From contig JAFLUL010000001.1 in assembly GCA_022508845.1 (NCBI GenBank), forward strand, positions 5,699 through 69,698: 64,000 bases of DNA. The letters are read 5' to 3'. Position numbers and translations under genes: made by a program. Positions within the stretch are counted from its first letter, which is position 1; every line of letters starts with the position of its first letter. Source of the stretch: Oscillospiraceae bacterium. Lineage in GTDB: Bacteria > Bacillota > Clostridia > Oscillospirales > Acutalibacteraceae. This document shows positions 5,063-36,291 of this stretch, in pieces. Below the pieces are notes generated by a model. The model ran no database searches, was not told the DNA's origin, and was given only the letters and a program-made list of their open reading frames with translations.

Positions 5063-7596
<2,534 letters not shown>

Positions 7597-7600
7597 GTCT

Positions 7601-8173
7601 ATGTCCGGAGTTGAAAAAATCATCGCCCGGTTAAATGAAGAAACCGAGGCGCAGTGCAGAGATATAATAGCCCTCGCCGAGGAAAAGGCGGCTCAGATTA
7701 TCGGCCGCGCTCAGGCTCAGGGCAATGAGATGATAAGAAAGGCAGAGGATGAGGCTAAAAGAAAGGCGGCGCAGATAGATGCGACCGCCAATTCGACTGT
7801 TGTTTCAAACAACCGCAACAGTATTCTTGCTGCAAAGGTTGAGCTTATAAACAGCGTTCTTTCGGCTGCCGAAAAAAGTCTTCACGATTTAAGCATTGAA
7901 GCATATTTCAGCACCCTTGCCGGACTTGCCAAAAAAAATAAGCAGGAGGGGACCGGCGAAATGCTCTTATGCGAGCGCGACCTCAGAAGAATGCCCTCCG
8001 ATTTTATTGATAAGCTCGGCTTCGGCTTTACCGTAAGCCCTGTTCCCGCCGATATAGACGACGGATTTATACTTAAATACGGCGAGATAGAAATAAACTG
8101 CACGTTTGCCGCTCTTTTCAGAGCAAGCTCGCAGGAGCTTCAGGCAAGGGCAAATGAGCTTTTGTTCTCATAA
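7601..8173 (+). CDS. ntpE: V-type ATP synthase subunit E
   Basis: 190-aa protein with a long N-terminal helix (EKII..L.EEAE.....I...A) and a globular C-terminus. Operon position fits. Confidence 0.8.
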   Translation: MSGVEKIIARLNEETEAQCRDIIALAEEKAAQIIGRAQAQGNEMIRKAEDEAKRKAAQIDATANSTVVSNNRNSILAAKVELINSVLSAAEKSLHDLSIEAYFSTLAGLAKKNKQEGTGEMLLCERDLRRMPSDFIDKLGFGFTVSPVPADIDDGFILKYGEIEINCTFAALFRASSQELQARANELLFS

Positions 8174-8192
8174 CGGCGAAAGGACGGACTTT

Positions 8193-9158
8193 ATGAAAGA
8201 CACCGAATATGCCTATGCCGTTGCGAGAATAAGGGCAAATGAAACGAAACTTATTTCCGGGTCGGAGCTGAGCGCGGTTATTTCCGCCGCAGGGTATAAC
8301 GAATGCGTTCGCAGGCTCAAGGAAAAGGGCTATGAGATAGAAGGCTCTGATTATCTGAGCGCGCTCGAAAAAAAGCTCAGTAACACCTGGGAGCTTATAG
8401 AGAGCGTTCTGCCCGACAGGTCGCAGTTTAACAGCGTTCTTATTAAAAACGATTTTCATAATCTGAAGGTCGCACTGAAGGCTCTCGTTTCGGATAAGAG
8501 CGCCGACGGACTGTTTGCTTCTCCGTCCGTTTATTCTCCCGCTGAAATAAAAAAATACGTATTCTCCCGCGAAAACGAGTGTCTCCCCGAGGAGCTTCGT
8601 CATGCCGATCGCAGCGCCTACAGGATTTTAACAAAAACGGGATTTGCGGCTCTTTCGGACGCCGTTATAGACCGCGCAAGCCTTGAATGTTCGCTCGCTT
8701 TCGCAAAAAAAGCGGATAATGAGATAATGCTTAAATTTGCCGAGGCTAAAGCTGCGCTCACCGATATAAAGGTGCTCTATCGCTGCGTTTTAACGGGCAA
8801 GGCGAAGAGCTTTATGGAGAGAGCAGTGTGCGAATGCTCCTCTTTTTCAAAAAAAGATATAATTGAGGCCGCCGATGGCGGAAAGGAAGCTCTTTTTGAG
8901 TTTTTATCCCACACCCCCTTCAGCGGTGCTGCCGACGCCCTTAAGGAGAGCGCGTCCGAATTTGAAAAATATGTCGACGATATTTTAACGGATATTCTCT
9001 CGGTAGGAAAGAGCGAGGCGTTTGGCATAAGCGCGCTTCTCGGATATTATTTTGCGGTAAACACCGAGATTATGAATTTAAGAATAATTCTGTCGGGCAA
9101 GTTAAACGGTCTGCCTGACGGTGAAATAAGAGAGAGGATGAGAAAGCTGTATGTATAA
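8193..9158 (+). CDS. ntpC: V-type ATP synthase subunit C (d-type)
   Basis: ATG 8193 (MKDTEYAYAVARIRANE...) is in frame with track ORF 8106..9158. This is the typical N-terminus of bacterial V-type subunit C. Confidence 0.85.
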   Translation: MKDTEYAYAVARIRANETKLISGSELSAVISAAGYNECVRRLKEKGYEIEGSDYLSALEKKLSNTWELIESVLPDRSQFNSVLIKNDFHNLKVALKALVSDKSADGLFASPSVYSPAEIKKYVFSRENECLPEELRHADRSAYRILTKTGFAALSDAVIDRASLECSLAFAKKADNEIMLKFAEAKAALTDIKVLYRCVLTGKAKSFMERAVCECSSFSKKDIIEAADGGKEALFEFLSHTPFSGAADALKESASEFEKYVDDILTDILSVGKSEAFGISALLGYYFAVNTEIMNLRIILSGKLNGLPDGEIRERMRKLYV

Positions 9159-9462
9159 GCTCGGCGTTATAGGCGATAAAGACAGTATATACGGCTTTTC
9201 GTCTGTTGGACTTAGCGTGTTCTTCGCGGATACTCCCGCCGAGGGCACGAGGATATTAAGAGAGATAGCCGACGATTTCGCGGTTATATTTATAACCGAA
9301 AAGCTCGCTTCCTCAATGGAAACGGAGCTGCAGAGATATGCTTCCAGGCCGTGTCCTGCCGTGATACCCATTCCGGGCGTTGCGGGAAACACCGGCTTGG
9401 GACTGAAAAACGTGAGCTCGTTTGTTGAAAAGGCTGTCGGTTCCGATATATTGCCCGATTAA
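9151..9462 (+). CDS. V-type ATP synthase subunit F
   Basis: 103 aa, MYKLGVIGDKDSIYGF..VG. Overlaps the stop of the preceding gene. Confidence 0.85.
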   Translation: MYKLGVIGDKDSIYGFSSVGLSVFFADTPAEGTRILREIADDFAVIFITEKLASSMETELQRYASRPCPAVIPIPGVAGNTGLGLKNVSSFVEKAVGSDILPD

Positions 9463-9478
9463 GAGAGGTTGATGAATT

Positions 9479-11251
9479 TTGAGTATAGGAAAAATCGTTA
9501 AAGTGGCGGGCCCTCTTGTTATAGCCGAGGGTATGAGAGACGCCAATATGTTTGACGTTGTAAGGGTGTCCGAAAAACGCCTTATAGGAGAAATAATCGA
9601 AATGCACGGCGACAGAGCCTCGGTTCAGGTCTATGAGGAGACCTCGGGGCTTGGCACCGGCGAGAGAGTTGAATCCACCGGTATGCCCCTGAGCGTGGAG
9701 CTTGGTCCCGGACTGATAAAGGGAATTTTTGACGGTATTCAGCGTCCGCTTGAAAAAATAATGGAAAAGGCGGGCAACAATCTCACCAGAGGAATTGAAG
9801 TTCCCTCGCTTGACAGAGAAGCAAAATGGCATTTCTATCCAACTGCCAAACCCGGCGCAAAGCTTACGGGCGGCGATGAGGTTGGATATGTTAACGAGAC
9901 CGACGTTGTTAAGCATATAATTATGGTTCCCCCATCAGTTAATGGCGTTCTTGCCGAAATAAATGAGGGGGATTATACCGTTACGGATGAGATAGGCTTT
10001 ATTCAGAGCGAAAACGGCAAAAAAATTCCGCTCACCCTTATGCAGACCTGGCCTGTTCGCCGCGGCAGACCCTATAAAACAAAGCTCTCTCCCGATATGC
10101 CGCTTGTTACGGGACAAAGAGTTGTCGACGCTCTCTTCCCAATAGCAAAGGGCGGTGTTGCGGCAATTCCGGGGCCGTTCGGCAGCGGAAAAACGGTAAC
10201 GCAGCATCAGCTCGCAAAATGGGCTGAGGCGGATATAGTTGTTTATATCGGCTGCGGAGAACGCGGCAACGAAATGACGGATGTTTTAAACGAATTTCCC
10301 GAACTTATCGACCCCCACACCGGAAAATCGCTTATGGAGAGAACGGTTTTAATTGCCAACACCTCCGATATGCCTGTTGCTGCTCGGGAAGCTTCTATAT
10401 ATACAGGCATAACCATAGCTGAATATTTCAGAGATATGGGTTATAGCGTTGCGCTGATGGCAGATTCAACCTCCCGCTGGGCGGAGGCGCTCAGAGAAAT
10501 GTCGGGCCGACTTGAAGAGATGCCCGGAGAAGAGGGCTATCCAGCATACCTCGGCTCGCGTCTTGCTCAGTTTTATGAGCGCGCAGGTAGAGTTAAGGTT
10601 CTCGGAACCGGAGAAAAAGAGGCCTCCCTTTCGGTTATAGGCGCGGTATCGCCTCCCGGAGGAGATATTTCGGAGCCTGTTTCTCAGGCAACCCTTCGCA
10701 TTGTAAAGGTTTTCTGGGGGCTTGATTCCTCGCTTGCGTATAAACGTCATTTCCCGGCCATTAACTGGCTGACTTCATATTCCCTTTATGCCGACAGCCT
10801 TGGCAAGTGGTTTAACGAAAACGTTGCATCCGGTTGGACTGAAAGCAGAAGCCGCCTTATGGCGCTGCTCTCGGAGGAAGCAAGCCTTGAAGAGATAGTT
10901 AAGCTCGTTGGTATGGACGCTCTTTCTCCCTCTGACCGCCTTAAAATGGAGGCAGCAAGAAGCATAAGAGAGGATTTCCTCCATCAGCTCGCCTTCCACG
11001 AGGTTGATACCTATTCATCGCTTAAAAAGCAGTATCTTATGATGCAGCTTGTTTTAATGTATTACGACAGATGTTTTGACGCGCTGAACATCGGTGCGGA
11101 TATAGAAAAGCTCGCTTCTCTTCCCTCAAGGGAGGATATAGGCCGCTTTAAGTATGTACCCGAAACGGATATTGACGCCGAATATAAGAGAGTTTCCGCT
11201 CTGCTTTACGAGCAGATAGAGGAAGTTGCCTCTCAGAAGGAGGAATTCTGA
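9479..11251 (+). CDS. ntpA: V-type ATP synthase subunit A (catalytic)
   Basis: Walker A GPFGSGKT. Also [14 protein letters not shown] and [30 protein letters not shown] start. Confidence 0.95.
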
Positions 11252-12624
11252 TGCCTAAGGAATACAGAACTTTGCAGGAGGTCGCCGGTCCTCTTATGCT
11301 CGTTAGAGATGTTGAGGGCGTTAAATATGAGGAGCTGGGCGAAATTGAGCTTGCAAACGGCGAAACAAGGCGCTGCAGGGTGCTTGAGATAGACGGAACT
11401 AACGCTTTGGTTCAGCTCTTTGAAAACTCCCAGGGAATAAACCTCTCCAGCAGCAAGGTGAGATTTTTGGGACGGCAGATGGAGCTTGGCGTTTCGCCCG
11501 ATATGCTCGGAAGAGTTTTTGACGGTCTCGGCAGACCCATAGACGGCGGCCCAGAGCTCATTCCTGAAAAGCGAATGGACGTAAACGGAACTCCTATGAA
11601 CCCCGCCGCAAGAAGCTATCCGCAGGAATTCATTCAAACCGGCGTTTCGGCGATAGACGGACTGAACACCCTTGTAAGAGGGCAGAAGCTTCCCATTTTC
11701 TCCGCCTCCGGTTTGCCTCACGCTCAGCTTGCCGCTCAGATAGCGCGCCAGGCAAAGGTAAGAGGAACAACTGAACCCTTCGCCGTTGTTTTTGCCGCAA
11801 TGGGAATAACATTTGAGGAATCAAACTTCTTTGTTGAATCCTTTAAAGAGACGGGAGCTCTCGAGCGTACCGTAATGTTTACCAATCTTGCAAACGACCC
11901 CGCCGTTGAGCGTATCGCCACCCCCAAAATGGCTCTCACCGCAGCCGAGTATCTCGCGTTTGACCTCGGAATGCATGTGCTTGTTATTTTAACGGACATA
12001 ACGAACTATGCGGACGCTCTCCGCGAAATCTCTGCCGCACGAAAAGAGGTTCCCGGCAGACGCGGCTACCCCGGATATATGTATACCGACCTCGCTTCAA
12101 TCTATGAGCGCGCAGGCCGCCAAAAGGGGAAATCCGGCAGTATAACGATGATACCCATTCTCTCAATGCCCGAGGATGATAAAACTCACCCCATCCCCGA
12201 CCTTACCGGCTATATAACCGAAGGACAGATAATTCTTTCTCGTGAGCTGCACCGCCGCTCGGTAACTCCTCCCGTGGACGTTCTTCCGTCATTATCCCGT
12301 CTTAAGGATAAGGGTATCGGCGAGGGCAAAACCAGAGAGGACCATTCAAACACAATGAACCAGCTTTTCTCTGCCTACGCCAGAGGAAAGGACGCAAAGG
12401 AGCTGATGGTTATTCTCGGCGAAGCCGCTCTAACGGATACAGATAAGCTCTATGCCAAATTTGCCGACGCCTTTGAGCAGGAATATGTTTCTCAGGGCAG
12501 CTATACCGACCGCAGCATTGAAGAAACCCTCGATATTGGCTGGCGCCTTCTCAAGATCCTCCCCAGAAGCGAACTCAAACGTATCTCAAATAAACTTCTT
12601 GAAAAATACTACGACAAAGCTTAA
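11251..12624 (+). CDS. ntpB: V-type ATP synthase subunit B
   Basis: ATG overlaps the TGA of ntpA (TGATG). Conserved blocks seen: [31 protein letters not shown] and [26 protein letters not shown]. Confidence 0.95.
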
Positions 12625-16309: not shown

Positions 16310-16768
16310 ATGAAAACAACAAAAAAATTTTTATCGCTGCTTCTTGCGGTTTTGCTCATATCGACATGTTTTGCTCCTGCGGCGGTTTTTGCCGATTCTG
16401 GCAACATGGACACCTGTGATCACAACTGGGTGTTTACCGTAACTCAGCTTGCCGACGGATGCATTTCCGGCAGAGGATATTATGAATGTTCAGTTTGTTC
16501 GTTAAGAGAATATGCGGAGATTCCCGGCTCAGAGCATAATTGGGAATGGGTAATAGATGATTATGCAACTCCGTTTCAGACGGGCAGAAAGCATCAGGTC
16601 TGCACCTACTGCGGTGCGGTTCAGAATATTAACACCAAAGTTCCCCTTGATAAAAGCTCCGGCGGCTTCGGCGACGCGATCGCGAGATTCTTTACAGGCA
16701 TTATCGCTATGTTTAAGAACGTATTTGAGCAGGTCGCGGACAACTTTTCCCGCCTATTTAAAAAATAA
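16310..16768 (+). CDS. Secreted Cys-rich protein P1 (signal peptide, two HxW...C...CxxCG modules, amphipathic Phe-rich tail)
   Basis: Signal peptide MKTTKKFLSLLLAVLLISTCFAPAAVFA. Modules CDHNW..C..CSVC and EHNWEW..CTYCG. Tail FFTGIIAMFKNVFEQVADNFSRLFKK. Confidence 0.7.
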   Translation: MKTTKKFLSLLLAVLLISTCFAPAAVFADSGNMDTCDHNWVFTVTQLADGCISGRGYYECSVCSLREYAEIPGSEHNWEWVIDDYATPFQTGRKHQVCTYCGAVQNINTKVPLDKSSGGFGDAIARFFTGIIAMFKNVFEQVADNFSRLFKK

Positions 16769-16789
16769 TTCTTTGATGGAGGAATAGAT

Positions 16790-17407
16790 ATGCGCAAAAT
16801 TAAAATTTTAATTTCACTTGTTTTGTCTGTTTTAATGCTGACGTTCTGTCTTGCTCCGGCAATGGCTTATGATGTTCTTCCTGAGGACTGCGTTCACGGC
16901 AGCTATGAATGGGTCACTGAAACTCCTGCCGACTGCACTCAAAACGGCTATATGTATCTAGAATGCACCCTTTGCGGTCAGATAGTTTCCGGAACAGAGG
17001 GAACAGTTATCCCCGCCACTGGACACAAATGGAATGCGGATGAAGGATCAAACGAAAATGCCTGCCTTGCCAGTTATACCTGCGAAGTCTGCGGCGAAAC
17101 CAAAACCGTAAGACTTCAAAACGGTGAACATTCGTGGGATGACGGCACTGTTATGCTTGAACCGAATTGCGCTTCTAAGGGCTATAAGGTTTTCTTGTGC
17201 ACGGTTGAGGGCTGCGGCGCTCAGAAATCCGAGGCTATTCCCGAAACACGCAATCATATCGACACCGATTCTAACGGCCTTTGCGATAGGTGCGGCGTTT
17301 CAATGCCCCGCGAAGAAAGCTCCGGCATATCCTTGGAGGAAATTTTCCGCAGCTTTGTTGACTTTTTCACCAATCTTTTTAACCGCATCAAGGCTCTGTT
17401 TTCATAA
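16790..17407 (+). CDS. Secreted Cys-rich protein P2 (paralogous architecture, four modules)
   Basis: Signal peptide ...CLAPAMA. Modules with CTLCG, CEVCG, EGCG and CDRCG. Tail IFRSFVDFFTNLFNRIKALFS. Confidence 0.7.
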   Translation: MRKIKILISLVLSVLMLTFCLAPAMAYDVLPEDCVHGSYEWVTETPADCTQNGYMYLECTLCGQIVSGTEGTVIPATGHKWNADEGSNENACLASYTCEVCGETKTVRLQNGEHSWDDGTVMLEPNCASKGYKVFLCTVEGCGAQKSEAIPETRNHIDTDSNGLCDRCGVSMPREESSGISLEEIFRSFVDFFTNLFNRIKALFS

Positions 17408-17423
17408 TCTGAGATTATATTTC

Positions 17424-17452
17424 ACCGGCTTCCGAGCGAGGCCGGTATTTTT
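17424..17452 (+). terminator. Hairpin plus T-run after P2 (possible attenuating terminator)
   Basis: accggc-ttccgagcgag-gccggt followed by attttt. Confidence 0.5.
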
Positions 17453-17474
17453 GTAAGAAAAGCGGTGGAATAAA

Positions 17475-18584
17475 TTGAAAAATATTTCAGTTATGATAAA
17501 GCCTGCTTCTTCGCTGTGTAATATGAAATGCGATTATTGCTTTTATAACGATATAAGCGATATCAGAAGCACTCGCTCTTTTGGGATTATGAGCAGAGAA
17601 ACGGCAGAAAAAATTATAAAAAACATATTTTGCTGCACCGAAAATGGAGATAGGATCACCTTTATTTTTCAGGGAGGCGAGCCAACACTCGCAGGACTTG
17701 ATTTTTTCAGATTTTTTGCTGAAAAGGCTGAGGAATACCGCGAAAGCGGAGTTCATATGAGCTTTTGTTTGCAAACAAACGGCTGTATGATAGATGAAAA
17801 ATGGTGTTACTTTTTAAAGGAACATAATTTTTTGGTTGGACTGTCTCTTGATTGCGATCCCGATATCCATAATTTATACCGGCGGGATTTTTCCGGGAAG
17901 GGAACCTTTTCGCGCGTAACGGAAGCAAAAAAGCTGTTTGAGCGCTTTAAGGTTGAATTTAATATTTTATCCGTTCTATCAAACCCCTTGGCGCGGCATC
18001 CGGGGGCGGTATGGAATTTTATCCTTTCGGGTAATATTAAATATGTCCAGTTTATTCCCTGCCTTGCACCGCTTTGCGGCGGAAAAAGCGGCTTTGCCCT
18101 CTCTTCGGAACGTTATGCCTCATTTTACAGCGCCCTTTTTAAGCTTTGGCTGGAGGAATATAAAAAAGATAATTATATCAGCGTAAAGCTTTTTGACGAT
18201 ATAATAAATCTGCTGGCTTTTTCGCGCTCCGGCGCGTGCGGACTAACGGGAAACTGCTCCTCTCAGATAGTTGTTGAGGCGGACGGCAGCGTTTATCCCT
18301 GCGATTTTTACGCTCTCGATCGATATCAAACAGGCAATCTTTCAGAAGAAACCCTAAGCAAGGTTTATTATTCAAAAACGGCACAGGACTTTTTAAACAG
18401 AGAAAATGTTTTGCCCTCTCTTTGCAAAGAGTGCCGCTATAAAGCTATATGCGGCGGAGGCTGCGAGCGTATGAGAAGTCAGATATTCTGCTCCGAGGGC
18501 GATAAGAATTGCGGGCAGAAACTTTTTTTGGACAAATGCATAGAACCTATGCTTGATATAGCGCAGCGTATGAGACGTATTTAA
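17475..18584 (+). CDS. Radical SAM / SPASM-domain maturase (anaerobic sulfatase-maturase-like)
   Basis: CxxxCxxC motif as CNMKCDYC, GGEPTL, and a C-terminal SPASM Cys cluster (CKECRYKAICGGGC). Start is TTG 17475 or ATG 17496. Confidence 0.85.
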   Translation: MKNISVMIKPASSLCNMKCDYCFYNDISDIRSTRSFGIMSRETAEKIIKNIFCCTENGDRITFIFQGGEPTLAGLDFFRFFAEKAEEYRESGVHMSFCLQTNGCMIDEKWCYFLKEHNFLVGLSLDCDPDIHNLYRRDFSGKGTFSRVTEAKKLFERFKVEFNILSVLSNPLARHPGAVWNFILSGNIKYVQFIPCLAPLCGGKSGFALSSERYASFYSALFKLWLEEYKKDNYISVKLFDDIINLLAFSRSGACGLTGNCSSQIVVEADGSVYPCDFYALDRYQTGNLSEETLSKVYYSKTAQDFLNRENVLPSLCKECRYKAICGGGCERMRSQIFCSEGDKNCGQKLFLDKCIEPMLDIAQRMRRI

Positions 18585-18611: not shown

Positions 18612-18640
18612 TTGACAGCCTGCTTTTTCGGTGTTAAAAT
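18612..18640 (+). promoter_or_regulatory. Sigma-A type promoter (TTGACA-17-TAAAAT) of the T-box leader
   Basis: TTGACA at 18612-18617 and TAAAAT at 18635-18640. Confidence 0.6.
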
Positions 18641-18661
18641 GTGTTCTACAACCAAATATAA

Positions 18662-18927
18662 AGGCTGTGACGAAGACGAAAAGAGCAATATTCAGCTTGC
18701 AGAGAGCCGGGGAAGGTGTGATCCCGGCAGCCGATAGCTTATTTTCCATCCCTTCCGAGCCGAAAGAGTGAAAAATCATTTTGAGTAGTTCTTTCCGTTA
18801 TTGCTGCGTTAATGCATAAGGCTTGTCAGAGTCTGAGTGGCGCCCCGAAAGGCGCAATTTGAGTGGTACCGCGGGTTTAGTTTATAGGCTCGTCTCAAAG
18901 AAATCATCTTTGGGGCGGCTTTTTTTT
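18662..18927 (+). promoter_or_regulatory. T-box riboswitch leader with intrinsic terminator
   Basis: Stem I has a K-turn (GGC-UGU-GA / GA-GCC), an AGAGAG bulge and a distal GGUGUGA loop. Stems II and III are present. T-box sequence AAUUUGAGUGGUACCGCGG at 18856-18874. Terminator hairpin 18888-18919 plus a U-run. Confidence 0.85.
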
Positions 18928-18955
18928 GTACCGCTCCGCGAAAGGAGAAAAAACT

Positions 18956-21220
18956 ATGGAAACAAAATCAATGAATGAGCTCACCGAGGTTGCCGCGCGT
19001 ATAAAGGAAATGCGTGAGATAATGGGCTATTCAGAAGCAGAAATGGCAAAAAAGACGGAGGTGGACGCCGAGAGCTATATGCGCTTTGAACGCGGCAAAA
19101 CGGATATGCCGTTTACCTTTATCCACAAATGCGCCCTTGCCTTCGGCATAGGACTTACAGACCTCCTGGAGGGTCACACCGCGAAACTCAGATCATATAC
19201 AGTAACCCGCAAGAGCGAGGGAATGAACACCGCCCGAGAGGACGGCATCCTTATTCAGAATCTCGCCCCGAAATTCCGCGATAAAATAGCTCAGCCCTAC
19301 TGGGTAAAGTATGAATTCAGCGAAAAGCAGCAAAACGAACCCATACATCTCACCCGCCATGAGGGGCAGGAATTTGACCTTATTCTTTCCGGCTCACTTC
19401 TTGTTCAGGTCGGTGAAAACAAGGAACTGCTCCACGAGGGCGACATAATCTATTATAATTCTTCAACTCCCCACGGTATGATAGCCGTTGACGGAGCCGA
19501 CTGCGAATTCCTTGCGGTTGTTCTTCCCGGAGAATCCAAGCAGAACGACATAATTCTCAATAATGCAGCCTCGTCCCACGCCGAAAAGGGTCTGCTTATA
19601 GACGAATATGTAAAATGTGAAGAAACTCCCGAGGGCGCTCTTGAAAAGATAAGCTTTGTTAACACCGAAAAATATAATTTCGGGTTTGACACGGTTGACA
19701 GAATAGCCTCTGTTTATCCCGATAAGCTGGCAATGATCCATCTTGATGTAAACAAAACCGAGCGCCGCTTTACCTTTAACGATATTCGCCATGAGAGTAA
19801 CCGCACGGCAAACTATTTAAAGAGCCTCGGCATCAAAAAGGGCGATAAGGTAATGCTTGTTCTCAAGCGTCACTATCAGTTCTGGTTTGCTATGGTTGCC
19901 CTTCATAAGCTCGGAGCAATAGCCATCCCCGCAACCTATCAGCTCAAGGAACACGATTTTATTTACCGCTATGATTCCGCCGGCGTTTCGGCTATCCTCT
20001 GCACCGCCGACGGCGACGTTTCCGATATGGCTGAGAGCGCGGCGGAGAAATGCCCCAGCGTTAAAACAAAGATCCTTGTTGGAGGCAAAAAGGAAGGCTG
20101 GCACGATTTTGACAGCGAATACTCCATCTTTTCAAGTCATTTTGACCGTGAAGAGGACACTCCCGGCGGAGATGACAGCGCTCTTATGTTCTTCTCTTCG
20201 GGAACGACCGGCAACCCCAAAATGGTGGATCACAAGCACACCTATTCTCTCGGACATTTTGTTACCGCGCGCTACTGGCACTGCTGCGAGCCGGACGGCC
20301 TCCACTTCACCATCTCCGACACCGGCTGGGGCAAATCCCTCTGGGGCAAACTCTACGGTCAGTGGATGTGCGAGGGCGCGGTGTTTGTTTACGATTTTGA
20401 CCGCTTCTCTGCCGCCGATATTCTGCCGCTGTTTAAGAAATACGGCATAACAACCTTCTGTGCTCCTCCCACGATGCTCAGAATGATGATAAAAGAGGAT
20501 CTCAGCAAGTATGATTTTTCATCCGTTAAGCATATGACAACAGCGGGCGAGGCTCTCAATCCCGAGGTTGCAAAGCAGTTCCTTGCCGCCACCGGACTTG
20601 AGATAATGGAGGGCTTCGGCCAGACCGAAACAACCTTAACAATAGGCAATCTCACCGGCACAAAGGTAAAACTCGGCTCTATGGGCAAGGCAACGCCGCA
20701 GTATAAGGTGGATATAGTTGATCCCGACGGAAACTCCCTGCCAAACGGCGAAACGGGCGAGATAGTTGTCCATCTGGACGAGGGAATGCCTATGGGTCTG
20801 TTTAAGGAGTATTACCGCGACGCCGAAAAAACAAACGAGGCCATACACGACGGACTTTATCACACCGGCGATACAGCGTGGCGCGATGAGGACGGTTACT
20901 TCTGGTATGTCGGCAGGGTGGACGATATAATCAAGTCCTCCGGCTACCGCATAGGGCCGTTTGAAATAGAGAGCGTTATAATGGAGCTTCCCTATGTTCT
21001 CGAATGCGGCGTTTCAGCCGTTCCCGATGAAGTGAGAGGTCAGATAGTTAAGGCGAGCATCGTTTTAACGAAGGGAACCGAGGGCACCGAGGAGCTTAAA
21101 AAGGAAATTCAAAACTATGTAAAGAGCCACACCGCTCCGTATAAATACCCCAGAGTTGTTGTGTTCAGAGATTCTCTTCCCAAAACAATAAGCGGAAAAA
21201 TTCAAAGGAATAAGTTATAA
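18956..21220 (+). CDS. Fusion protein: XRE HTH + cupin + AMP-forming acyl-CoA synthetase (medium/short-chain type)
   Basis: ATG 18956 follows aaaggag. HTH region is EMREIMGYSEAEMAKKTEVDAESYMRFERGK. Cupin region is about aa 130-200. AMP-binding motifs seen: FFSSGTTGNPKM, YHTGD, GRVDDIIKSSGYRIGPFEIE, ISGKIQRNKL. Confidence 0.85.
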   Translation: METKSMNELTEVAARIKEMREIMGYSEAEMAKKTEVDAESYMRFERGKTDMPFTFIHKCALAFGIGLTDLLEGHTAKLRSYTVTRKSEGMNTAREDGILIQNLAPKFRDKIAQPYWVKYEFSEKQQNEPIHLTRHEGQEFDLILSGSLLVQVGENKELLHEGDIIYYNSSTPHGMIAVDGADCEFLAVVLPGESKQNDIILNNAASSHAEKGLLIDEYVKCEETPEGALEKISFVNTEKYNFGFDTVDRIASVYPDKLAMIHLDVNKTERRFTFNDIRHESNRTANYLKSLGIKKGDKVMLVLKRHYQFWFAMVALHKLGAIAIPATYQLKEHDFIYRYDSAGVSAILCTADGDVSDMAESAAEKCPSVKTKILVGGKKEGWHDFDSEYSIFSSHFDREEDTPGGDDSALMFFSSGTTGNPKMVDHKHTYSLGHFVTARYWHCCEPDGLHFTISDTGWGKSLWGKLYGQWMCEGAVFVYDFDRFSAADILPLFKKYGITTFCAPPTMLRMMIKEDLSKYDFSSVKHMTTAGEALNPEVAKQFLAATGLEIMEGFGQTETTLTIGNLTGTKVKLGSMGKATPQYKVDIVDPDGNSLPNGETGEIVVHLDEGMPMGLFKEYYRDAEKTNEAIHDGLYHTGDTAWRDEDGYFWYVGRVDDIIKSSGYRIGPFEIESVIMELPYVLECGVSAVPDEVRGQIVKASIVLTKGTEGTEELKKEIQNYVKSHTAPYKYPRVVVFRDSLPKTISGKIQRNKL

Positions 21221-21999
21221 TGAAGATAGCCTGTGTTCAAATGGATATGGCTTTTGATAAGCCGGATGAAAATTTTGCTTCCGCAAAAGAGCTTTTGAGA
21301 GAGGCAAACAGAGAAAAACCTGATGTTATTCTGCTGCCGGAAACCTGGAACGTGGGCTTTTTCCCAAAGGACACGTTAAGAGAACATTCTGATGATAACT
21401 GCCGGAGAGTTATTTCCGAGATAGGGGCTCTTGCGAAGGAGCTAAACGTCAATATAGTTGCCGGAAGCGTTGCAAATAATCGCGGCGGGGAGGTATATAA
21501 TACCTCCGTAACCTTTAACAGACAGGGAGAGGTAGTTAACGTTTACGATAAAACCCACCTGTTTTCCCCTATGGGAGAGCACGAATATTTCCAAAAGGGA
21601 AAAAATGTTTTAAGATTTACTCTTGACGGATTCTCCTGCGGTGTTATAATATGTTATGATATACGTTTTCCCGAACTGACGCGCAAAATGAGCGTTGAGG
21701 GACTGGATTTTCTGTTTGTTGTTTCGCAGTGGCCAAAGGTGAGAGTGCCTCAGCTGAAGGCTCTTTTAAGAGCGAGGGCTATTGAGAACCAGTGTTTTGC
21801 CGTTTGCTGCAATTCCTGCGGCAAAGCCGGCAGCACCGTCTACGGCGGTAATTCTATGATCTTTGACCCGTTGGGCGAACTGCTTTGCGAAGCCGGTGAC
21901 AGCCAGCAGATAATTTTTGCCGAATGCGAAACCGGAAATCTTTCGCAGATAAGAAACACCATAAACGTGTTCAGCGACAGAAGACCGGAGCTGTATTAA
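21220..21999 (+). CDS. Carbon-nitrogen hydrolase family protein (nitrilase / omega-amidase-like)
   Basis: ATG overlaps the preceding stop. LLPETWN (Glu), a Lys region, and ICYDIRFPE (catalytic Cys). Confidence 0.8.
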   Translation: MKIACVQMDMAFDKPDENFASAKELLREANREKPDVILLPETWNVGFFPKDTLREHSDDNCRRVISEIGALAKELNVNIVAGSVANNRGGEVYNTSVTFNRQGEVVNVYDKTHLFSPMGEHEYFQKGKNVLRFTLDGFSCGVIICYDIRFPELTRKMSVEGLDFLFVVSQWPKVRVPQLKALLRARAIENQCFAVCCNSCGKAGSTVYGGNSMIFDPLGELLCEAGDSQQIIFAECETGNLSQIRNTINVFSDRRPELY

Positions 22000-22140: not shown

Positions 22141-23235
22141 ATGGATTATAATTTTCCCGTAACAAGAACTTCTCATCCCAAGCCCCGTCCTGAGGACGAG
22201 ACCAAGCTCGGTTTTGCCCGTTTTTTCACCGATCATATGTTTTGTATGGATTGGGACGAGGGGCTGGGCTGGCATGACGGCAGAGTTGTTCCCCACGAGC
22301 CTATTGCTATTGAACCCGCCTCCTGCGTTCTGCACTATGCGCAGATGATGTTTGAGGGTATGAAGGCTTACCGCACTCCCTCGGGTGATATTCAGCTTTT
22401 CCGCCCCGATATGAACGCGAAGCGTATGGCTCGCACCAACGAGCGTATGTGCATACCTGAGCTTCCCGAGGAAATACTTATAGAGGGTGTTAAGGCTGTT
22501 ATCAGAGAGGATATGGATTGGGTGCCGAAGGCTCCCGGAACTGCTCTCTATATTCGTCCGTTTATTTTCGGCGATGAGGTCTCTTTCTCCGTTCTTCCCG
22601 CAAAGCATTATCGCTTTATGATAATCTTAAGCCCCACCGGCTCCTATTACGCGGCAAATGACGGCGGAATCACCACAACACGAATTTACGTTCAGAAAAA
22701 ATATATCAGAGCCGCTAAGGGCGGAACCGGCTATGCCAAGGTGGGCGGAAACTACGGCGGCGGTATGCGTGCTTCTCAGGACGCTATGAAGTATAACTGC
22801 AAAGACGTTCTCTGGCTTGACGCTGCCGAGCATAAATATGTTGAAGAAATAGGCACCTCGAACGCCTTCTTCCGTATAAACGATGAGGTAATAACCGCTC
22901 CGCTTGACAGCGAGACCATTCTTCCGGGAATAACAAGAGACAGCGTTATTCAGCTTCTCAAATATTGGGGCGTTAAGGTCAGCGAGAGAAAGCTTTCAAT
23001 TGACGAGATATTCGAAGCCGAGAAAAACGGCACTCTTCAGGAAATATTCGCCAGCGGCACGGCGGCTGTTATATCTCCCATCGGCTGGCTCAACTGCGAG
23101 GGTGAGGAGCATCAGGTTGCCGACGGTAAGGTAGGCCCCATAGCTCAGAAGCTTTATGACACTCTCTACGGCATCCAGACCGGCACGGTTGAGGACTTTA
23201 TGGGGTGGACTTATCCGCTTGGACTTAAAATATAA
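22141..23235 (+). CDS. ilvE: Branched-chain amino acid aminotransferase
   Basis: FTDHMF, VLHYAQMMFEGMKAYR, YIRPFIFG and GGTGYAKVGGNYG are typical of class IV BCAT. Confidence 0.9.
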   Translation: MDYNFPVTRTSHPKPRPEDETKLGFARFFTDHMFCMDWDEGLGWHDGRVVPHEPIAIEPASCVLHYAQMMFEGMKAYRTPSGDIQLFRPDMNAKRMARTNERMCIPELPEEILIEGVKAVIREDMDWVPKAPGTALYIRPFIFGDEVSFSVLPAKHYRFMIILSPTGSYYAANDGGITTTRIYVQKKYIRAAKGGTGYAKVGGNYGGGMRASQDAMKYNCKDVLWLDAAEHKYVEEIGTSNAFFRINDEVITAPLDSETILPGITRDSVIQLLKYWGVKVSERKLSIDEIFEAEKNGTLQEIFASGTAAVISPIGWLNCEGEEHQVADGKVGPIAQKLYDTLYGIQTGTVEDFMGWTYPLGLKI

Positions 23236-23269: not shown

Positions 23270-23938
23270 ATGTATTCTCCAACTTCTTTTCCCCGCATAA
23301 CTCTTTTTTGCGGGCACTACGGCAGCGGAAAAACAAATCTTGCGGTAAATTATGCCCTTTTCCTAAAAGAAAAGGGCTTAGATGTATCACTTGCCGATAT
23401 TGATATTGTAAACCCGTATTTTCGTTCTAAGGACAGCGAGAAGGAGCTTAAAGAAAATGGTATAAACGTTGTTTCTCTCCCGTTTGCCAATTCGAGCGTT
23501 GATCTGCCGAGCCTCCCGAGCGAGGTTTACGGACTTGTGCAGCGAAGAGATATTTATGCTGTTCTCGATATCGGGGGCGATGAGAGGGGAGCGCTTGCCT
23601 TAGGACGTTTTGCGCCGTATATAGCGGAAGAAAACAACTATGATATGTTTTTTGTTGTAAATTTTTTCCGCCCCCTTACTCCCGACGCCGAAAGCGCATA
23701 TGAAGTAATGCGCGAAATTGAAGGAGCCTGTCCGCTGAAGTTTACAGGAATAATAAATAATTCCAATTTGGGAGAACTTACATCTCCCAAGGATATTGAA
23801 AAATCGCATAAAAAAGCGATGGAGCTTGGGGATATCTCGGGTGTTCCTGTTAAATTTACCTCCGTAAACGAAACGCTGAAAAACACAGTGAGCGGGGAGA
23901 ATATATTTTATATGAAATTACAAAAAAAATTATTTTAA
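23270..23938 (+). CDS. P-loop NTPase (MinD/ParA/CooC-like)
   Basis: ATG 23270 is in frame with track ORF 23156..23938. Walker A is GHYGSGKTN. Confidence 0.65.
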   Translation: MYSPTSFPRITLFCGHYGSGKTNLAVNYALFLKEKGLDVSLADIDIVNPYFRSKDSEKELKENGINVVSLPFANSSVDLPSLPSEVYGLVQRRDIYAVLDIGGDERGALALGRFAPYIAEENNYDMFFVVNFFRPLTPDAESAYEVMREIEGACPLKFTGIINNSNLGELTSPKDIEKSHKKAMELGDISGVPVKFTSVNETLKNTVSGENIFYMKLQKKLF

Positions 23939-23981: not shown

Positions 23982-24188
23982 ATGCCAAAGGTTACGTTTA
24001 ACACCGATATCTGCAAGGGCTGCGGGCTGTGCGTTGAGGCCTGCCCGAAAAAGATAATCGTTATAGCCTCGGATAAAATAAACAAAAAGGGGCATTATCC
24101 CGCCGAAATGACCGAGCAGGAAAAGTGCATTGCATGCGCTTTCTGCGCAACAATGTGTCCTGACTGTGTTATTACGGTTGAAAAGTGA
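23982..24188 (+). CDS. 2-oxoacid:ferredoxin oxidoreductase delta subunit (2x[4Fe-4S] ferredoxin)
   Basis: Two CxxCxxCxxxCP motifs: CKGCGLCVEACP and CIACAFCATMCP. Confidence 0.85.
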   Translation: MPKVTFNTDICKGCGLCVEACPKKIIVIASDKINKKGHYPAEMTEQEKCIACAFCATMCPDCVITVEK

Positions 24189-24198
24189 GGTGCCGAAA

Positions 24199-25257
24199 AT
24201 GAGTGAAAAAGTTTTGATGAAGGGCAACGAAGCCATTGCCGAAGCCGCCATAAGAGCGGGCTGCAGGCATTATTTCGGCTATCCCATAACTCCCCAAACG
24301 GAGCTTGCCGCTTATATGTCAAAAAGAATGCCCAAAATAGGCGGAGTTTTTCTTCAGGCGGAAAGCGAAATTTCAGCAATCAATATGGTTTACGGCGTTG
24401 CCGGAAGCGGCAAGCGCGTTATGACCTCCTCCTCCTCTCCCGGAATTTCTCTTAAGCAGGAGGGCATTTCCTACATAGCAGGCGCCGATCTTCCCGCGCT
24501 CATCGTAAATGTTCAGAGAGGCGGCCCGGGCCTCGGAGGAATTCAGCCCAGCCAGTCCGATTATTTTCAGGCAACCAAGGGCGGCGGCCACGGCGACTAT
24601 CATCTTATTGTCCTTACCCCCGCTTCGGTTCAGGAGATGGCGGATCTAACTCTTCTTGCATTTGATCTCGCCGATAAATACCGCGTTCCCGCAATGCTTC
24701 TTGCCGACGGAACAACGGGGCAGATGATGGAGCCTGTTTCTCTTCCCGAGGAAAAGGAAGTTTCGGTTGAAAAGCCGTGGGCTGTAACCGGAACCAAAAT
24801 GCAGAGAAAGCATAATATAATAAATTCGCTCTATCTTCAGCCGGACGAGCTTGAAAAGATAAATTTTGAGCGTTATGAGCGTTATAGGCTTATTGAAGAA
24901 AACGAAGTTCGCTATGAGAGCTATCTCACAGAGGACGCTGATATAGTTGTTGTTGCCTTCGGTATAGCGGCAAGAGTTTCAAAAAATGCCGTCAATGAGG
25001 CGAGAAAACAGGGTATAAAGGTTGGGCTTATCCGCCCGATCACCATATGGCCCTTCCCCAAGAAGGTTCTCTCTGAGCTTAGCAAGACCGCAAAGGGCTT
25101 TATAAGCGTTGAGCTTTCAATGGGTCAGATGATAGAGGATATAAAGCTCGCAATAAACTGCTCGCGCCCCGTTATGCTCTGCAACCGCGCCGGCGGTATG
25201 ATACCAAGCCCCGATGAGGTGCTTAATTCCATTAAAAAAATGCAGGAGGGTATATGA
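24199..25257 (+). CDS. 2-oxoacid:ferredoxin oxidoreductase alpha subunit
   Basis: ATG 24199 (MSEKVLMKGNEAIAEAAIRAGCRHYFGYPITPQTE), the canonical OFOR alpha N-terminus. Confidence 0.85.
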   Translation: MSEKVLMKGNEAIAEAAIRAGCRHYFGYPITPQTELAAYMSKRMPKIGGVFLQAESEISAINMVYGVAGSGKRVMTSSSSPGISLKQEGISYIAGADLPALIVNVQRGGPGLGGIQPSQSDYFQATKGGGHGDYHLIVLTPASVQEMADLTLLAFDLADKYRVPAMLLADGTTGQMMEPVSLPEEKEVSVEKPWAVTGTKMQRKHNIINSLYLQPDELEKINFERYERYRLIEENEVRYESYLTEDADIVVVAFGIAARVSKNAVNEARKQGIKVGLIRPITIWPFPKKVLSELSKTAKGFISVELSMGQMIEDIKLAINCSRPVMLCNRAGGMIPSPDEVLNSIKKMQEGI

Positions 25258-26012
25258 GTATGGTAGTTTTTGAAAAGCCGAAGAGCCTCACCAACGCCGA
25301 ATTTCACTATTGCCCGGGCTGCACCCACGGCATTATTCACCGCCTTGTGGCAGAGGCTATCGATGAACTTGGAATAGAGGGCAGAACCGTAGGTATTGCG
25401 CCGGTTGGCTGCGCTGTTATGGCGTATAACTATTTTTCCTGCGATATGGTGGAGGCGGCTCACGGAAGAGCGCCCGCCGTTGCAACCGGACTTAAGCGCT
25501 CTATGCCCGAAAACATAATCTTCACCTATCAGGGCGACGGCGACCTTGCTTCCATAGGTATGGCCGAAACGGTTCACGCCGCAACCAGAAACGAGAATAT
25601 AACAATAATATTTGTTAACAACGCAATTTACGGTATGACAGGCGGTCAGATGGCTCCCACCTCTCTCCCCGGACAGGTAACGCAGACCTCTCCCTACGGC
25701 AGAGACGTAAAAACGGCAGGTTACCCGATAAAGGTTTCAGAGCTGCTTGCTTCTCTTGACGGTCCCGAATTTATAGCCCGCGTTGCTGTAAACAATGTTA
25801 AAAATGTTAAAGCCGCCGGAAAGGCAATTAAAAAGGCCTTTCAGAACCAAATAGACGGCAAAGGATTCTCTCTTGTTGAGGTCGTTTCCTCCTGTCCGAC
25901 AAACTGGGGTATGACCCCCGGGAAGGCTCTGCAGTGGGTGGACGAAAAAATGATACCCTATTATCCCTTGGGAGTTTATAAAGACAAAAGCGCACAGGAG
26001 GTTTCTCAATGA
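25254..26012 (+). CDS. 2-oxoacid:ferredoxin oxidoreductase beta subunit (TPP-binding)
   Basis: CPGCTHG and the TPP motif GDGD...NN.IYGMTGGQ. Confidence 0.85.
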   Translation: MSMVVFEKPKSLTNAEFHYCPGCTHGIIHRLVAEAIDELGIEGRTVGIAPVGCAVMAYNYFSCDMVEAAHGRAPAVATGLKRSMPENIIFTYQGDGDLASIGMAETVHAATRNENITIIFVNNAIYGMTGGQMAPTSLPGQVTQTSPYGRDVKTAGYPIKVSELLASLDGPEFIARVAVNNVKNVKAAGKAIKKAFQNQIDGKGFSLVEVVSSCPTNWGMTPGKALQWVDEKMIPYYPLGVYKDKSAQEVSQ

Positions 26013-26545
26013 CAACGGAGATTTTAATTGCCGGCTTCGGAGGGCAGGGCGTTCTTTTTGCCGGAAAATTCCTTGCTTATAAGGGTCTTATTGAAAACCG
26101 TCAGGTAAGCTGGCTGCCGTCCTATGGTCCCGAAATGCGCGGAGGTACAGCAAACTGCTCGGTTATATTAAGCGATGAGAGCGTTGGCTCTCCCATAGTT
26201 TCAAAGCCGAATATCCTTATGGCGATGAACCTGCCCTCGCTCGATAAATATGAAAACGATGTTCTCCCCGGCGGGATGATATTTGTTGATTCAACCTTAA
26301 TAGAGCGAAAAGTCAACCGCACGGACGTCAGTGTGTTTTATATCCCCTCAACCGCCCTTGCCGCCGAGATAGGCGCACCAACGCTTGCCAATATGGTTAT
26401 GACAGGCAAGGTTATAAAGGAATGCGACGGTATTTCAGATGAAAACCTCGAAGCTGCGCTCGCAAAGGTGGTTTCCGCCCGCCACGCGGATCTAAAGGAC
26501 ATAAACCTCAAAGCCCTTCAAACGGGGATGGAATACGCGGGATAA
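26009..26545 (+). CDS. 2-oxoacid:ferredoxin oxidoreductase gamma subunit
   Basis: GFGGQGVLFAGK...SYGPEMRGGTANC. Confidence 0.85.
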   Translation: MTTEILIAGFGGQGVLFAGKFLAYKGLIENRQVSWLPSYGPEMRGGTANCSVILSDESVGSPIVSKPNILMAMNLPSLDKYENDVLPGGMIFVDSTLIERKVNRTDVSVFYIPSTALAAEIGAPTLANMVMTGKVIKECDGISDENLEAALAKVVSARHADLKDINLKALQTGMEYAG

Positions 26546-29906: not shown

Positions 29907-29993
29907 GCCGGCGTGGCGGAATAGGCAGACGCAAGGGACTTAAAATCCCTCGGTAGCAATATCGTACCGGTTCAAGTCCGGTCGCCGGCACCA
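29907..29993 (+). tRNA. tRNA-Leu (anticodon UAA), CCA encoded
   Basis: Acceptor stem GCCGGCG/CGCCGGC. Anticodon stem AGGGA/UCCCU with loop CUUAAAA. Long variable arm. T-loop TTCAAGT. 3' ACCA. Confidence 0.9.
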
Positions 29994-30832: not shown

Positions 30833-31666
30833 ATGGGCAGGAAGCTTTTTTGCGAGATAAGTCCAACAACTTATAAAATCTCAAAGAAGAAAGAAATCTT
30901 ATTAAGATATATGAAAGATTTTTTCAGCAGCGAGAAAATTGCAAAAACTCATTCAAATGAAGAATTACCGAGCATTATTAAAAGCCACAGCTCAATTCTG
31001 ATCAGGAATTTGGCAGGGGTTGATTTAAGGTTGCAGGAAAATAAGGTAACAAACATAATGTTGGCTTGCAATAAAGTTAACGGAATAATTATACATCCCG
31101 GCGAAACCTTTTCGTATTGGAGGACAATTGGTGAAGCAACGCAAAAAAAGGGGTATAAAGAGGGTTTAGTTATAAGCAGAGGCGGAATTACTTCCGGATA
31201 TGGCGGAGGCTTGTGCCAAATGGCTAATATGATACACTGGCTCGTATTAAACAGTCCGTTAGATGTTACGGAATTACATCATCATTCCGATGCTTTGTTT
31301 CCGGATGACAGAAGGAGGGTCCCTTTTGGAACAGGTACATCGGTTAGCTATAATAACGTTGATTACAGATTTAAGAATAATACGGATCAAGACGTCCAAA
31401 TACTTGTATGGGTTGAAAACGGCGAATTATGCGGTGAATTAAGAAGCGAAAGAGAATTTCCTTATCGTTATAAATTGGTTGAGGAAAACCATCATTTCAG
31501 AAAAGAGGCAGACAAATATTTTAGAATTTCCCAAGTTTATAGAATTGTAATTGACAAATCAACAAACGAAGAAATAGCCAAAGAGCTTATATTAGATAAT
31601 CATTCAGCAGTATTATTTGATTATTCATTGATACCGAAAGACCAAATAAGGGATGATATAAATTGA
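30833..31666 (+). CDS. VanW domain protein, no signal peptide or TM segment
   Basis: ETFSYW.. and the GYGGGLCQ motif are characteristic of VanW/YoaR-type domains. The stop overlaps the next start (TTGA). Confidence 0.75.
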   Translation: MGRKLFCEISPTTYKISKKKEILLRYMKDFFSSEKIAKTHSNEELPSIIKSHSSILIRNLAGVDLRLQENKVTNIMLACNKVNGIIIHPGETFSYWRTIGEATQKKGYKEGLVISRGGITSGYGGGLCQMANMIHWLVLNSPLDVTELHHHSDALFPDDRRRVPFGTGTSVSYNNVDYRFKNNTDQDVQILVWVENGELCGELRSEREFPYRYKLVEENHHFRKEADKYFRISQVYRIVIDKSTNEEIAKELILDNHSAVLFDYSLIPKDQIRDDIN

Positions 31667-33484: not shown

Positions 33485-33898
33485 GTGGGACGCCAAAGAA
33501 TCGAAATTAAATTTTCCACCGTTATGAAGGCAAATGAAGCAGTTATAAACCGTTTTAATTCTGTTGACCAGTGCAAAAAAGCGAATTTAGGTAATCGTGC
33601 ACTGAACAGCACGGATATGTACAACTATAATTTTGATTGCAATATTCAGCAGGTAAAGCGGTTAGAGTTTGATGTTCTCTACTACGGTCTGTTCTTTGCT
33701 GATCGCATTGCCATTTTTAAGATGCGCTCAAATGAAATATTGTCTTGTTTTGGATACTCGGATAAACAACACAAAGGTAACGAAGGCGAGGGGCAATTTC
33801 ATCTTAATCGCAGGAGTATTGATTATCATATGCAGAACCACTTTGTTCAGTGGCTTACATACGAAGAACTCTACAATTTATTAAATAGTGAGAAATGA
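33485..33898 (+). CDS. Hypothetical protein, orphan (candidate partner of the adjacent methyltransferase)
   Basis: Track ORF starts at GTG 33485; an alternative ATG is at 33524. No strong RBS. The 3' end overlaps the convergent MTase by 18 nt. No motif recognised. Confidence 0.4.
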   Translation: MGRQRIEIKFSTVMKANEAVINRFNSVDQCKKANLGNRALNSTDMYNYNFDCNIQQVKRLEFDVLYYGLFFADRIAIFKMRSNEILSCFGYSDKQHKGNEGEGQFHLNRRSIDYHMQNHFVQWLTYEELYNLLNSEK

Positions 33899-36049: not shown

Positions 36050-36291
36050 AGCTGCCTCCCGGTGCATTTAATGAATTTATTATACTCTTTTATGCGAATA
36101 AAGTCAACATTAATGAATATAACAGGTTCGCAGCATTTCCCTGGCAATCACGTTAGAGTTCTCTGAAAAATTCATAAACTGCTTGCCGGAACTGAGCAAT
36201 GCCAACGAGATTACGGGATTTGCCTTCGGTTTCAACCTTGGTCTGCCGCAGGCGGTGCAAGCCGTCTTGTTGGCAGTTTTTGCGGCAAAAA

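Follow-up and report, generated by a model that had tools for sequence, protein, structure and literature searches.

What does a tRNA-sensing RNA switch control when it stands in front of an acyl-CoA synthetase? T-boxes read uncharged tRNA, and their targets are almost always genes for aminoacyl-tRNA synthetases, amino acid biosynthesis, or amino acid uptake. The locus considered here lies in a 64,000-nucleotide stretch of DNA from an Oscillospiraceae bacterium (contig JAFLUL010000001.1), which we refer to as the window and whose positions serve as coordinates throughout. In it, a T-box leader precedes a gene for a 754-residue protein that joins a helix-turn-helix (HTH) domain and a cupin domain to an AMP-forming acyl-CoA synthetase. 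It has been known since the 1960s that Clostridia of the rumen and gut need or use isobutyrate, 2-methylbutyrate, and isovalerate for valine, isoleucine, and leucine, respectively; these isoacids serve as feed additives, and the genes and regulation of their use are still poorly defined. Judged from the sequence of the locus and its relatives, the target of the T-box is most likely an alternative (salvage) route of isoleucine biosynthesis that starts from 2-methylbutyrate.

The leader is a genuine and complete T-box, predicted to attenuate transcription. Like the operon behind it, it lies on the forward strand, and it is headed by a sigma-70-type promoter at 18612-18640, in which TTGACA (18612-18617) and a TG-extended TAAAAT (18635-18640) are separated by a 17-nucleotide spacer and together give 11 of 12 matches; near-consensus promoters of the form TTGACAA...TGnTAtAAT are likewise found in orthologous leaders. 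The T-box itself spans 18658-18900 and matches the Rfam family RF00230 over the full length of the model (1-219 of 219) with 95 bits and an E value of 1.5e-19, the gathering score of the family being 93 bits. Stem I (18664-18760) comprises a kink-turn (K-turn) base helix, a lower helix in which GAAG (18672-18675) pairs with CUUC (18752-18755), an AG bulge with the sequence AGAGAG (18701-18706), and a distal loop containing GGUG (18715-18718). The T-box sequence, AAUUUGAGUGGUACCGCGG, occupies 18856-18874. A UGGN bulge at this site pairs with the 3' end of the tRNA, and the UGGU found here at 18864-18867 would pair with an ACCA end, thus predicting a discriminator A, which fits tRNA-Ile. The intrinsic terminator (18890-18927) consists of a 12-bp stem at 18890-18918 with a 5-nucleotide loop and a run of eight U at 18920-18927, the region folding with -16.3 kcal/mol. 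Terminator and antiterminator are mutually exclusive, as the 5' arm of the former overlaps the 3' strand of the latter. The initial annotation had described a complete leader with promoter, K-turn, bulge, distal loop, T-box sequence, and terminator, and each of these elements was found in place, with the covariance model likewise scoring the leader as a T-box.

The identity of the specifier was less certain at the outset. AUC, an isoleucine codon, had been proposed at 18748-18750 from an alignment of the lower helix by hand, and the call had been flagged as weak because the next base is C18751. We collected 80 orthologous loci, of which 70 have leaders long enough for analysis. The T-box core motif AGTGGTACCGCG lies 70-150 nucleotides upstream of the ortholog in 73 of the 80 loci, and AUC occupies the specifier position in all 70 leaders. 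The base 3' of the codon is A in about 44 of these, C in about 24 (the window included), and G in 2, a distribution that settles the flagged weakness and by which the C appears to be a tolerated variant. An explicit pairing model of Stem I was tested on the 70-leader alignment, in addition to RNAalifold: 95.6% of cells are paired, compared to 27-51% when the partners are slid, and 11 of 18 pairs show compensatory changes, values that none of 500 shuffles reaches. The specifier position is flanked by two covarying helices, namely the lower helix, in which GAAG/CUUC changes to GAGG/CCUC among the orthologs, and the closing helix above the specifier loop, which is mostly GG/CC and reads GA/UC in the window, hence also compensated. 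Between them, the loop has the form Y-AUC-(A/C) on its 3' side and AC on its 5' side. Downstream of the T-box sequence, a hairpin with a T-run is present in 61 of the 70 leaders, with a mean energy of -19.7 kcal/mol. The alternative specifiers UCC-A, CCA, and CAU were ruled out, given that AUC alone is invariant and framed by the two covarying helices, and on this comparative evidence the assignment to isoleucine is solid. Several orthologous leaders score below the RF00230 gathering score and are not reported by it (for example L007 at 7866, L060 at 7899, L044 at 7919, L038 at 477, and L052 at 7912); with leaders at or below the threshold, annotation pipelines will often miss them.

The open reading frame behind the leader runs from an ATG at 18956 to a stop ending at 21220, with a ribosome-binding site (GGAG) at 18944-18947. 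In its 754-residue product, Pfam recognizes HTH_19/HTH_3 at residues 14-73 (just under the Pfam cut-offs), Cupin_2 at 132-189, AMP-binding at 249-608, and AMP-binding_C at 670-748. Combining Pfam with the match to 434 repressor and the predicted structure, we place an XRE/434-type HTH domain at residues 10-75 (18983-19180), followed by a cupin domain at residues 111-195 (19286-19540) with invariant H135, E139, and H173, and an AMP-forming acyl-CoA synthetase domain of the Macs/MbcS type at residues 221-754 (19616-21217). The fusion of the three domains reported in the initial annotation is real, and an assembly artefact joining two genes was ruled out: more than 120 protein clusters, at 74% identity or more, share the full-length architecture, and relatives are encoded by at least 599 species-representative genomes, all of gut or rumen Clostridia apart from one Sphaerochaetaceae bin. 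The window protein is identical to a database entry named "AMP-binding protein [Oscillospiraceae bacterium]".

Several observations bear on the substrate of the ligase domain. Its best match in the PDB is 3ETC (636 bits, E 2.5e-190), which aligns end to end (query 9-532 with chain 44-571), the next match reaching 349 bits, and its best NCBIfam family is MbcS. The 3ETC structure is that of Macs from Methanosarcina acetivorans, an acyl-CoA synthetase of the medium-chain type, whose preferred substrate is 2-methylbutyrate and whose acyl pocket is defined by Trp259 (PMC10455477). In the window protein, W463 aligns with this residue, and it is 100% conserved in both paralog classes described below, the Ile-type and the Val-type proteins. 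We therefore predict the protein to be a 2-methylbutyrate--CoA ligase with an N-terminal sensor module. A search for a second ligase paralog in the window returned none, the only candidate being a distant 468-residue AMP-binding open reading frame at 31663-33069. This enzyme follows a VanW-like gene with a 4-nucleotide overlap (30833-33069 together) and shares 26% identity with the T-box-controlled ligase over the C-terminal part.

The ligase gene does not stand alone. Overlapping its stop codon is the start of a gene for a carbon-nitrogen (CN) hydrolase resembling Nit/omega-amidase (21220-21999; Pfam CN_hydrolase), followed by genes for a class IV branched-chain amino acid aminotransferase (BCAT; 22141-23235; NF009897, 446 bits against a cut-off of 307) and a P-loop nucleoside triphosphatase (NTPase; approximately 23270-23938, the start codon being uncertain) with weak similarity to CbiA/ParA/NUBPL. 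The last four genes encode a 2-oxoacid:ferredoxin oxidoreductase (Vor): the delta subunit, a 2x[4Fe-4S] ferredoxin (23982-24188), the alpha subunit of the VorB type (24199-25257; NF005507, 566 bits against a cut-off of 399), the thiamine diphosphate-binding beta subunit (25254-26012), and the gamma subunit of the POR family (26009-26545). All are close-packed on the same strand and, with the ligase gene, form an eight-gene operon in which acyl-CoA synthetase, Vor, and BCAT are encoded together. The view in the initial annotation that the target is something other than a biosynthesis gene thus does not hold, since a Macs-type ligase heads an operon with BCAT and a VorB-type oxidoreductase.

These components suggest a short route to isoleucine, in which the function of the operon is read from homology, gene content, and synteny, and that of the switch from T-box anatomy and the established mechanism. 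When charged tRNA-Ile is scarce, the antiterminator would form and RNA polymerase would pass the terminator at 18890-18927 into the operon. The ligase would then activate exogenous 2-methylbutyrate to 2-methylbutyryl-CoA, the delta-alpha-beta-gamma VorB-type oxidoreductase would reductively carboxylate it to 2-oxo-3-methylvalerate, and BCAT would convert the latter to isoleucine. Reductive carboxylation of this kind is documented physiology, both from 2-methylbutyrate to isoleucine and from isovalerate to leucine, and has long been known in rumen organisms. The combination of an AMP-forming ligase with induction by uncharged tRNA argues for the anabolic direction. A more speculative role falls to the CN hydrolase, which as an omega-amidase might pull a glutamine-dependent transamination forward. 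It co-occurs with a BCAT of the window type in five of five loci and always lies directly upstream of it, as in the window, L038, L052, L071, and L078; wherever the hydrolase occurs, the BCAT is 68-85% identical to that of the window, compared to 45-52% in loci that lack it. This co-occurrence suggests a glutamine-transaminase/omega-amidase pair. The P-loop NTPase, which has no NCBIfam match, is always encoded next to the oxidoreductase genes, in almost all related loci directly upstream of the delta subunit, and may serve Vor in maturation or Fe-S delivery. We regard an isoleucine T-box that switches on a 2-methylbutyrate-to-isoleucine operon as the main explanation of the locus, and as a probable one.

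Related genomes extend this picture to the other branched-chain amino acids. Most of them have, directly behind the ortholog, a tandem paralog that is likewise full-length and about 60% identical, and that is served by a promoter and a T-box of its own. Among the 51 Val-type leaders whose first parse was readable, 48 carry a valine codon at the specifier position (GUA in 45 and GUC in 3) with a purine after it. The same loci contain nine further T-boxes, which score 107-117 bits in Rfam, have the leucine specifiers CUC or CUG, and precede a gene for a LeuA-like protein (HMGL-like plus LeuA allosteric domain), followed by a gene for a TIM barrel-AMP-ligase fusion. The recurrent order in dozens of genomes is T-box(Ile)-ligase1, T-box(Val)-ligase2, [CN hydrolase], [BCAT], P-loop NTPase, Vor delta-alpha-beta-gamma, [BCAT], and [T-box(Leu)...]; the window organism has the single-ligase (Ile) version, with the whole operon behind one T-box. 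Vor and BCAT being common to the three amino acids, the ligase would be the committed, amino-acid-specific step, which would account both for the position of the T-box before the ligase and for the presence of one T-box per ligase paralog with a matching specifier (AUC; GUA or GUC; CUC or CUG).

Some details of these sister loci deserve mention. The T-box loci with a leucine specifier are found at L007 3418-7610, L022 2045-2282, L044 17509-17749, L055 17301-17536, L060 17498-17726, and L062 11737-11979. Ile- and Val-type leaders have no S-turn and score 93-107 bits, and the Leu-type T-boxes of the same loci keep AGUA...GAA. The products of the Leu locus are a LeuA-like protein of 462 residues and an 824-residue fusion of a xylose-isomerase-like TIM barrel with an AMP-ligase. 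The N terminus of the former reads DITLKELSQ where isopropylmalate synthases have the catalytic DTTLRDGEQ. The LeuA-like protein may have lost its catalysis and act as a leucine sensor that partners an isovalerate ligase. The Sphaerochaetaceae metagenome-assembled genome (L038) has the same arrangement as the window, with T-box(Ile), ligase, CN hydrolase, a BCAT that is 85% identical, P-loop NTPase, and Vor; the presence of the operon in a spirochaete bin reflects either horizontal transfer or a binning error.

The two full-length paralog classes also differ in sequence in an informative way. We compared 79 Ile-type with 45 Val-type proteins, counting as discriminating a position at which either class is conserved to 90% or more and the two classes differ. 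There are 11 such positions, of which 10 fall within the N-terminal HTH-cupin module (L9I, H57Y, K58R, L71I, E95A, I98M, I100Y, K110R, Y115L, and V188I), with near-diagnostic changes also at positions 96, 119, 129, 131, 140, and 186. The sole discriminator in the ligase domain is residue 459, which is Gly in the Ile-type and Ala in the Val-type proteins, in the motif DTGW(G/A)K..W (DTGWGKSLW in the window, where G459 to W463 are encoded by 20330-20344). It lies one helical turn before the pocket tryptophan W463, and a change from Gly to Ala would be expected for a substrate that is one carbon smaller, that is, isobutyrate rather than 2-methylbutyrate. That class-specific residues cluster in the cupin suggests that the module recognizes something that differs between the isoleucine and valine systems.

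The N-terminal module calls for a closer look. Its only sequence match in the PDB is the alignment of the HTH with 434 repressor (E 2e-4), and NCBIfam yields marginal matches only (PuuR, E 0.0027). In the AlphaFold2 (AF2) model, the HTH consists of five helices with a predicted local distance difference test (pLDDT) score of 77-91, and the best fold matches to the model of the N-terminal module are the enzymes HppE, HEPD, and MPnS, with the regulator 1Y9Q also matched, all at a template modeling (TM) score of about 0.3, which makes the likeness one of architecture only; both enzymes such as HppE and transcription factors have this two-domain fold. The invariant H135, E139, and H173 of the cupin, arranged as H135-x3-E139...H173, resemble a 2-His-1-carboxylate site. 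The closest non-fused relatives are HTH-cupin proteins of about 185 residues with 31-45% identity. In all five loci with enough of the downstream gene to be scored (L081, L083, L084, L085, and L087), such a standalone gene is followed 12-75 bp downstream by a gene for a Macs-type ligase that is 51-53% identical to that of the window. This conserved pairing indicates that the fusion arose by joining the two genes of an older unit. No T-box motif was found at the standalone HTH-cupin/ligase loci that were sampled. Across L081-L089, the standalone genes encode 184-192 residues and the Macs-type ligases that follow encode 551-561, and the contigs resemble those of other phyla, for example in the OmpA/fn3 neighbourhood of L087. 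An earlier idea, that an acidic HTH had lost DNA binding in the fusion, was dropped: the mean net charge of the HTH is approximately -6 in the family and -5.8 in the standalone relatives, and an acidity that is common to both says nothing specific about the fusion.

The module is most likely a ligand sensor with class-specific specificity that has been attached to the committed enzyme. Our favoured hypothesis is that it provides a second layer of control, sensing the precursor acid or, as feedback, the end product, and acting on the enzyme or, less likely, on DNA. A more specific and tentative proposal, which we put forward as a possibility rather than an expectation, is that the module is a metal-dependent small-molecule sensor, not a DNA-binding repressor, that allosterically gates the ligase, for example through isoleucine or valine feedback, and that the T-box specifiers reveal the substrates of the three ligase families. 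If so, the committed salvage enzyme of each branched-chain amino acid would be under two independent controls, tRNA charging being read by an RNA switch and the free metabolite by a protein sensor; the leucine system might likewise use the LeuA-like protein, catalytically dead and with a leucine-binding allosteric domain, and the classic need of rumen and gut Clostridia for isoacids would have its genetic explanation in hundreds of species.

Other readings of the locus have to be weighed against these. By analogy with BirA, as raised in the initial annotation, the protein could be a bifunctional enzyme and repressor, with the HTH binding an operator and an acyl-adenylate or a ligand of the cupin acting as corepressor, so that autoregulation would be added to the T-box. 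The kinship of the HTH with 434 repressor, the presence of the HTH_3 regulator 1Y9Q among the fold matches, and the standalone relatives directly upstream of Macs-type ligases are in line with this idea, as is the behaviour of the XRE-cupin proteins characterized so far, which sense the precursor of a pathway and locally repress the metabolic genes next to them (PMC7901475). However, an operator search of 116 promoter regions by alignment, 7-mer sharing, and inverted-repeat enrichment returned only the -35 box and A-tracts; it revealed no conserved palindrome, and the best inverted-repeat score was 7.06 compared to 6.62 in shuffled regions. Furthermore, the positions that match the base-contacting Gln28, Gln29, and Gln33 of 434 repressor either vary or hold Glu, it would be unusual for a near-consensus promoter to drive a repressor at the level of an enzyme, and the best fold matches are enzymes whose fold does not bind DNA. 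The acidity of the HTH also speaks against DNA binding, although it is not decisive, being equally pronounced in the standalone relatives. We consider the BirA-like idea somewhat disfavoured and less likely than not.

A second line of thought leaves the regulation as proposed and changes the product. As with MbcS of Staphylococcus, the ligase could mainly supply 2-methylbutyryl-CoA as a primer for anteiso fatty acids under isoleucine scarcity. MbcS is indeed the best NCBIfam family, and an isoleucine T-box would be sensible here as well, given that isoleucine limitation should also deplete anteiso primers. Yet the score stays under the equivalog cut-off of that family, the operon of the ligase includes, in dozens of genomes, two activities that primer supply from an external acid would not need, namely an aminotransferase and a 2-oxoacid:ferredoxin oxidoreductase, and the valine and leucine T-boxes of the sister ligases fit amino acid supply more directly. 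Primer supply as the main role is therefore unlikely, although it and isoleucine synthesis are not mutually exclusive. Conversely, the operon might be catabolic, with isoleucine being fermented via BCAT and the oxidoreductase to 2-methylbutyryl-CoA and on to 2-methylbutyrate; both enzymes are reversible, and proteolytic Clostridia use them in the oxidative direction. This reading was rejected on regulatory logic and strikes us as very improbable: the T-box induces when tRNA-Ile is uncharged, a state in which breaking down isoleucine would do harm, AMP-forming synthetases work in the direction of acyl-CoA and conserve no energy, and catabolic routes use phosphotransacylase and kinase or ADP-forming enzymes instead.

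The proposed 2-methylbutyrate-to-isoleucine operon has its own weak points. Which acid the ligase takes, which way the flux runs, and how the leader responds to tRNA are all inferences. The ligase reaches 450 bits where the MbcS equivalog cut-off is 850; the leader exceeds the RF00230 threshold by 2 bits only, its specifier is followed by C18751 instead of the usual purine, and the specifier loop lacks the canonical S-turn (AGUA...GAA), with no GAA and a 5' side consisting of AC only. With regard to the sensor module, the AF2 model is moderately confident (mean pLDDT 66.5), and the promoters show neither a conserved palindrome nor an enrichment of inverted repeats in the 116 regions, sites elsewhere not having been searched. 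Finally, a strong promoter-like site lies within the CN hydrolase gene at 21623-21650, with TTGACG, a 16-nucleotide spacer, and a TG-extended TATAAT (11 of 12 matches), and the genes for BCAT and Vor could be transcribed from it without involvement of the T-box.

Several other features were noted in the window. The gene for a radical SAM/SPASM protein (17475-18584), whose end lies just ahead of the T-box promoter, is preceded by two open reading frames that have no Pfam match (16310-16768 and 16790-17407); together, 16310-18584 may constitute a peptide-modification cassette. A V/A-type ATPase gene cluster, in which subunits I, A, and B were identified, extends over 5063-12624. A tRNA-Leu gene (anticodon UAA) with a long variable arm is located at 29907-29990 on the forward strand, and 33881-36067 on the reverse strand encode a 728-residue protein with HTH_17, N6-adenine methyltransferase, and TaqI_C domains, which resembles a fused restriction-modification enzyme.

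With respect to novelty, a literature search found no paper that links a T-box to an acyl-CoA synthetase or to Vor, a description in papers that are not openly accessible being possible, and the open-access T-box survey by Wels et al. nowhere mentions CoA or ferredoxin. The genes and the regulation of a T-box-controlled 2-methylbutyrate-to-isoleucine route thus appear to be undescribed so far. As far as could be established, the RNA element is a member of the T-box family by score and structure, the regulon is new, and the pathway itself is old biochemistry. The locus supplies candidate genes for the known physiology of isoacids, and it extends the repertoire of T-box targets to an acyl-CoA ligase. 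The specifiers in turn label the ligases, marking an isoleucine enzyme, its tandem valine twin, and a third, leucine enzyme in at least hundreds of uncultured species, and the comparison of the first two indicates that a single residue (G459A) may set the substrate size and that the sensor module is class-specific as well.

How the system relates to known ones can be stated component by component. The likeness to BirA is one of concept only, namely an adenylate-forming enzyme with an N-terminal domain of a DNA-binding type, and is an analogy: the folds are unrelated, BirA combining a winged HTH with a ligase that resembles class II aminoacyl-tRNA synthetases and the window protein an XRE HTH and a cupin with an ANL ligase, and no operator was found at the promoters of the window family. 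HppE, HEPD, and MPnS, in which an XRE-like helical domain is joined to an Fe(II) cupin, share the architecture and the 2-His-1-carboxylate-like residues, but the TM score of about 0.3 is accompanied by an identity of 17-21%, and nothing in the window protein points to phosphonate or oxidase chemistry. The XRE-cupin repressors (ErfA, PsdR, PauR, and PuuR; 1Y9Q) have the same domain order and size as the N-terminal module, with only marginal sequence similarity in the case of PuuR, and the standalone relatives of about 185 residues likewise adjoin their associated metabolic gene; the window module, in contrast, is fused to a 534-residue enzyme rather than free-standing, and no palindromic operator was detected at the promoters. 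Of the branched short-chain acyl-CoA synthetases Macs (3ETC) and Staphylococcus MbcS, the former aligns with the ligase domain from end to end, with the pocket tryptophan kept, whereas the HTH-cupin module of 220 residues is an addition that Macs lacks, and relative to MbcS the window ligase lies below the equivalog cut-off, its activity being predicted from sequence. The RNA element shares with known T-boxes in front of amino acid biosynthesis operons the make-up of a tRNA-sensing transcription attenuator, namely Stem I, specifier, T-box sequence, and competing terminator and antiterminator structures. It differs from known leaders in its compact specifier loop without an S-turn and in that each ligase paralog has its own specifier. 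Whereas the known T-box of the ilv-leu route governs de novo synthesis, the one described here would govern a ligase, Vor, and BCAT that together build the amino acid from a pre-formed branched acid.

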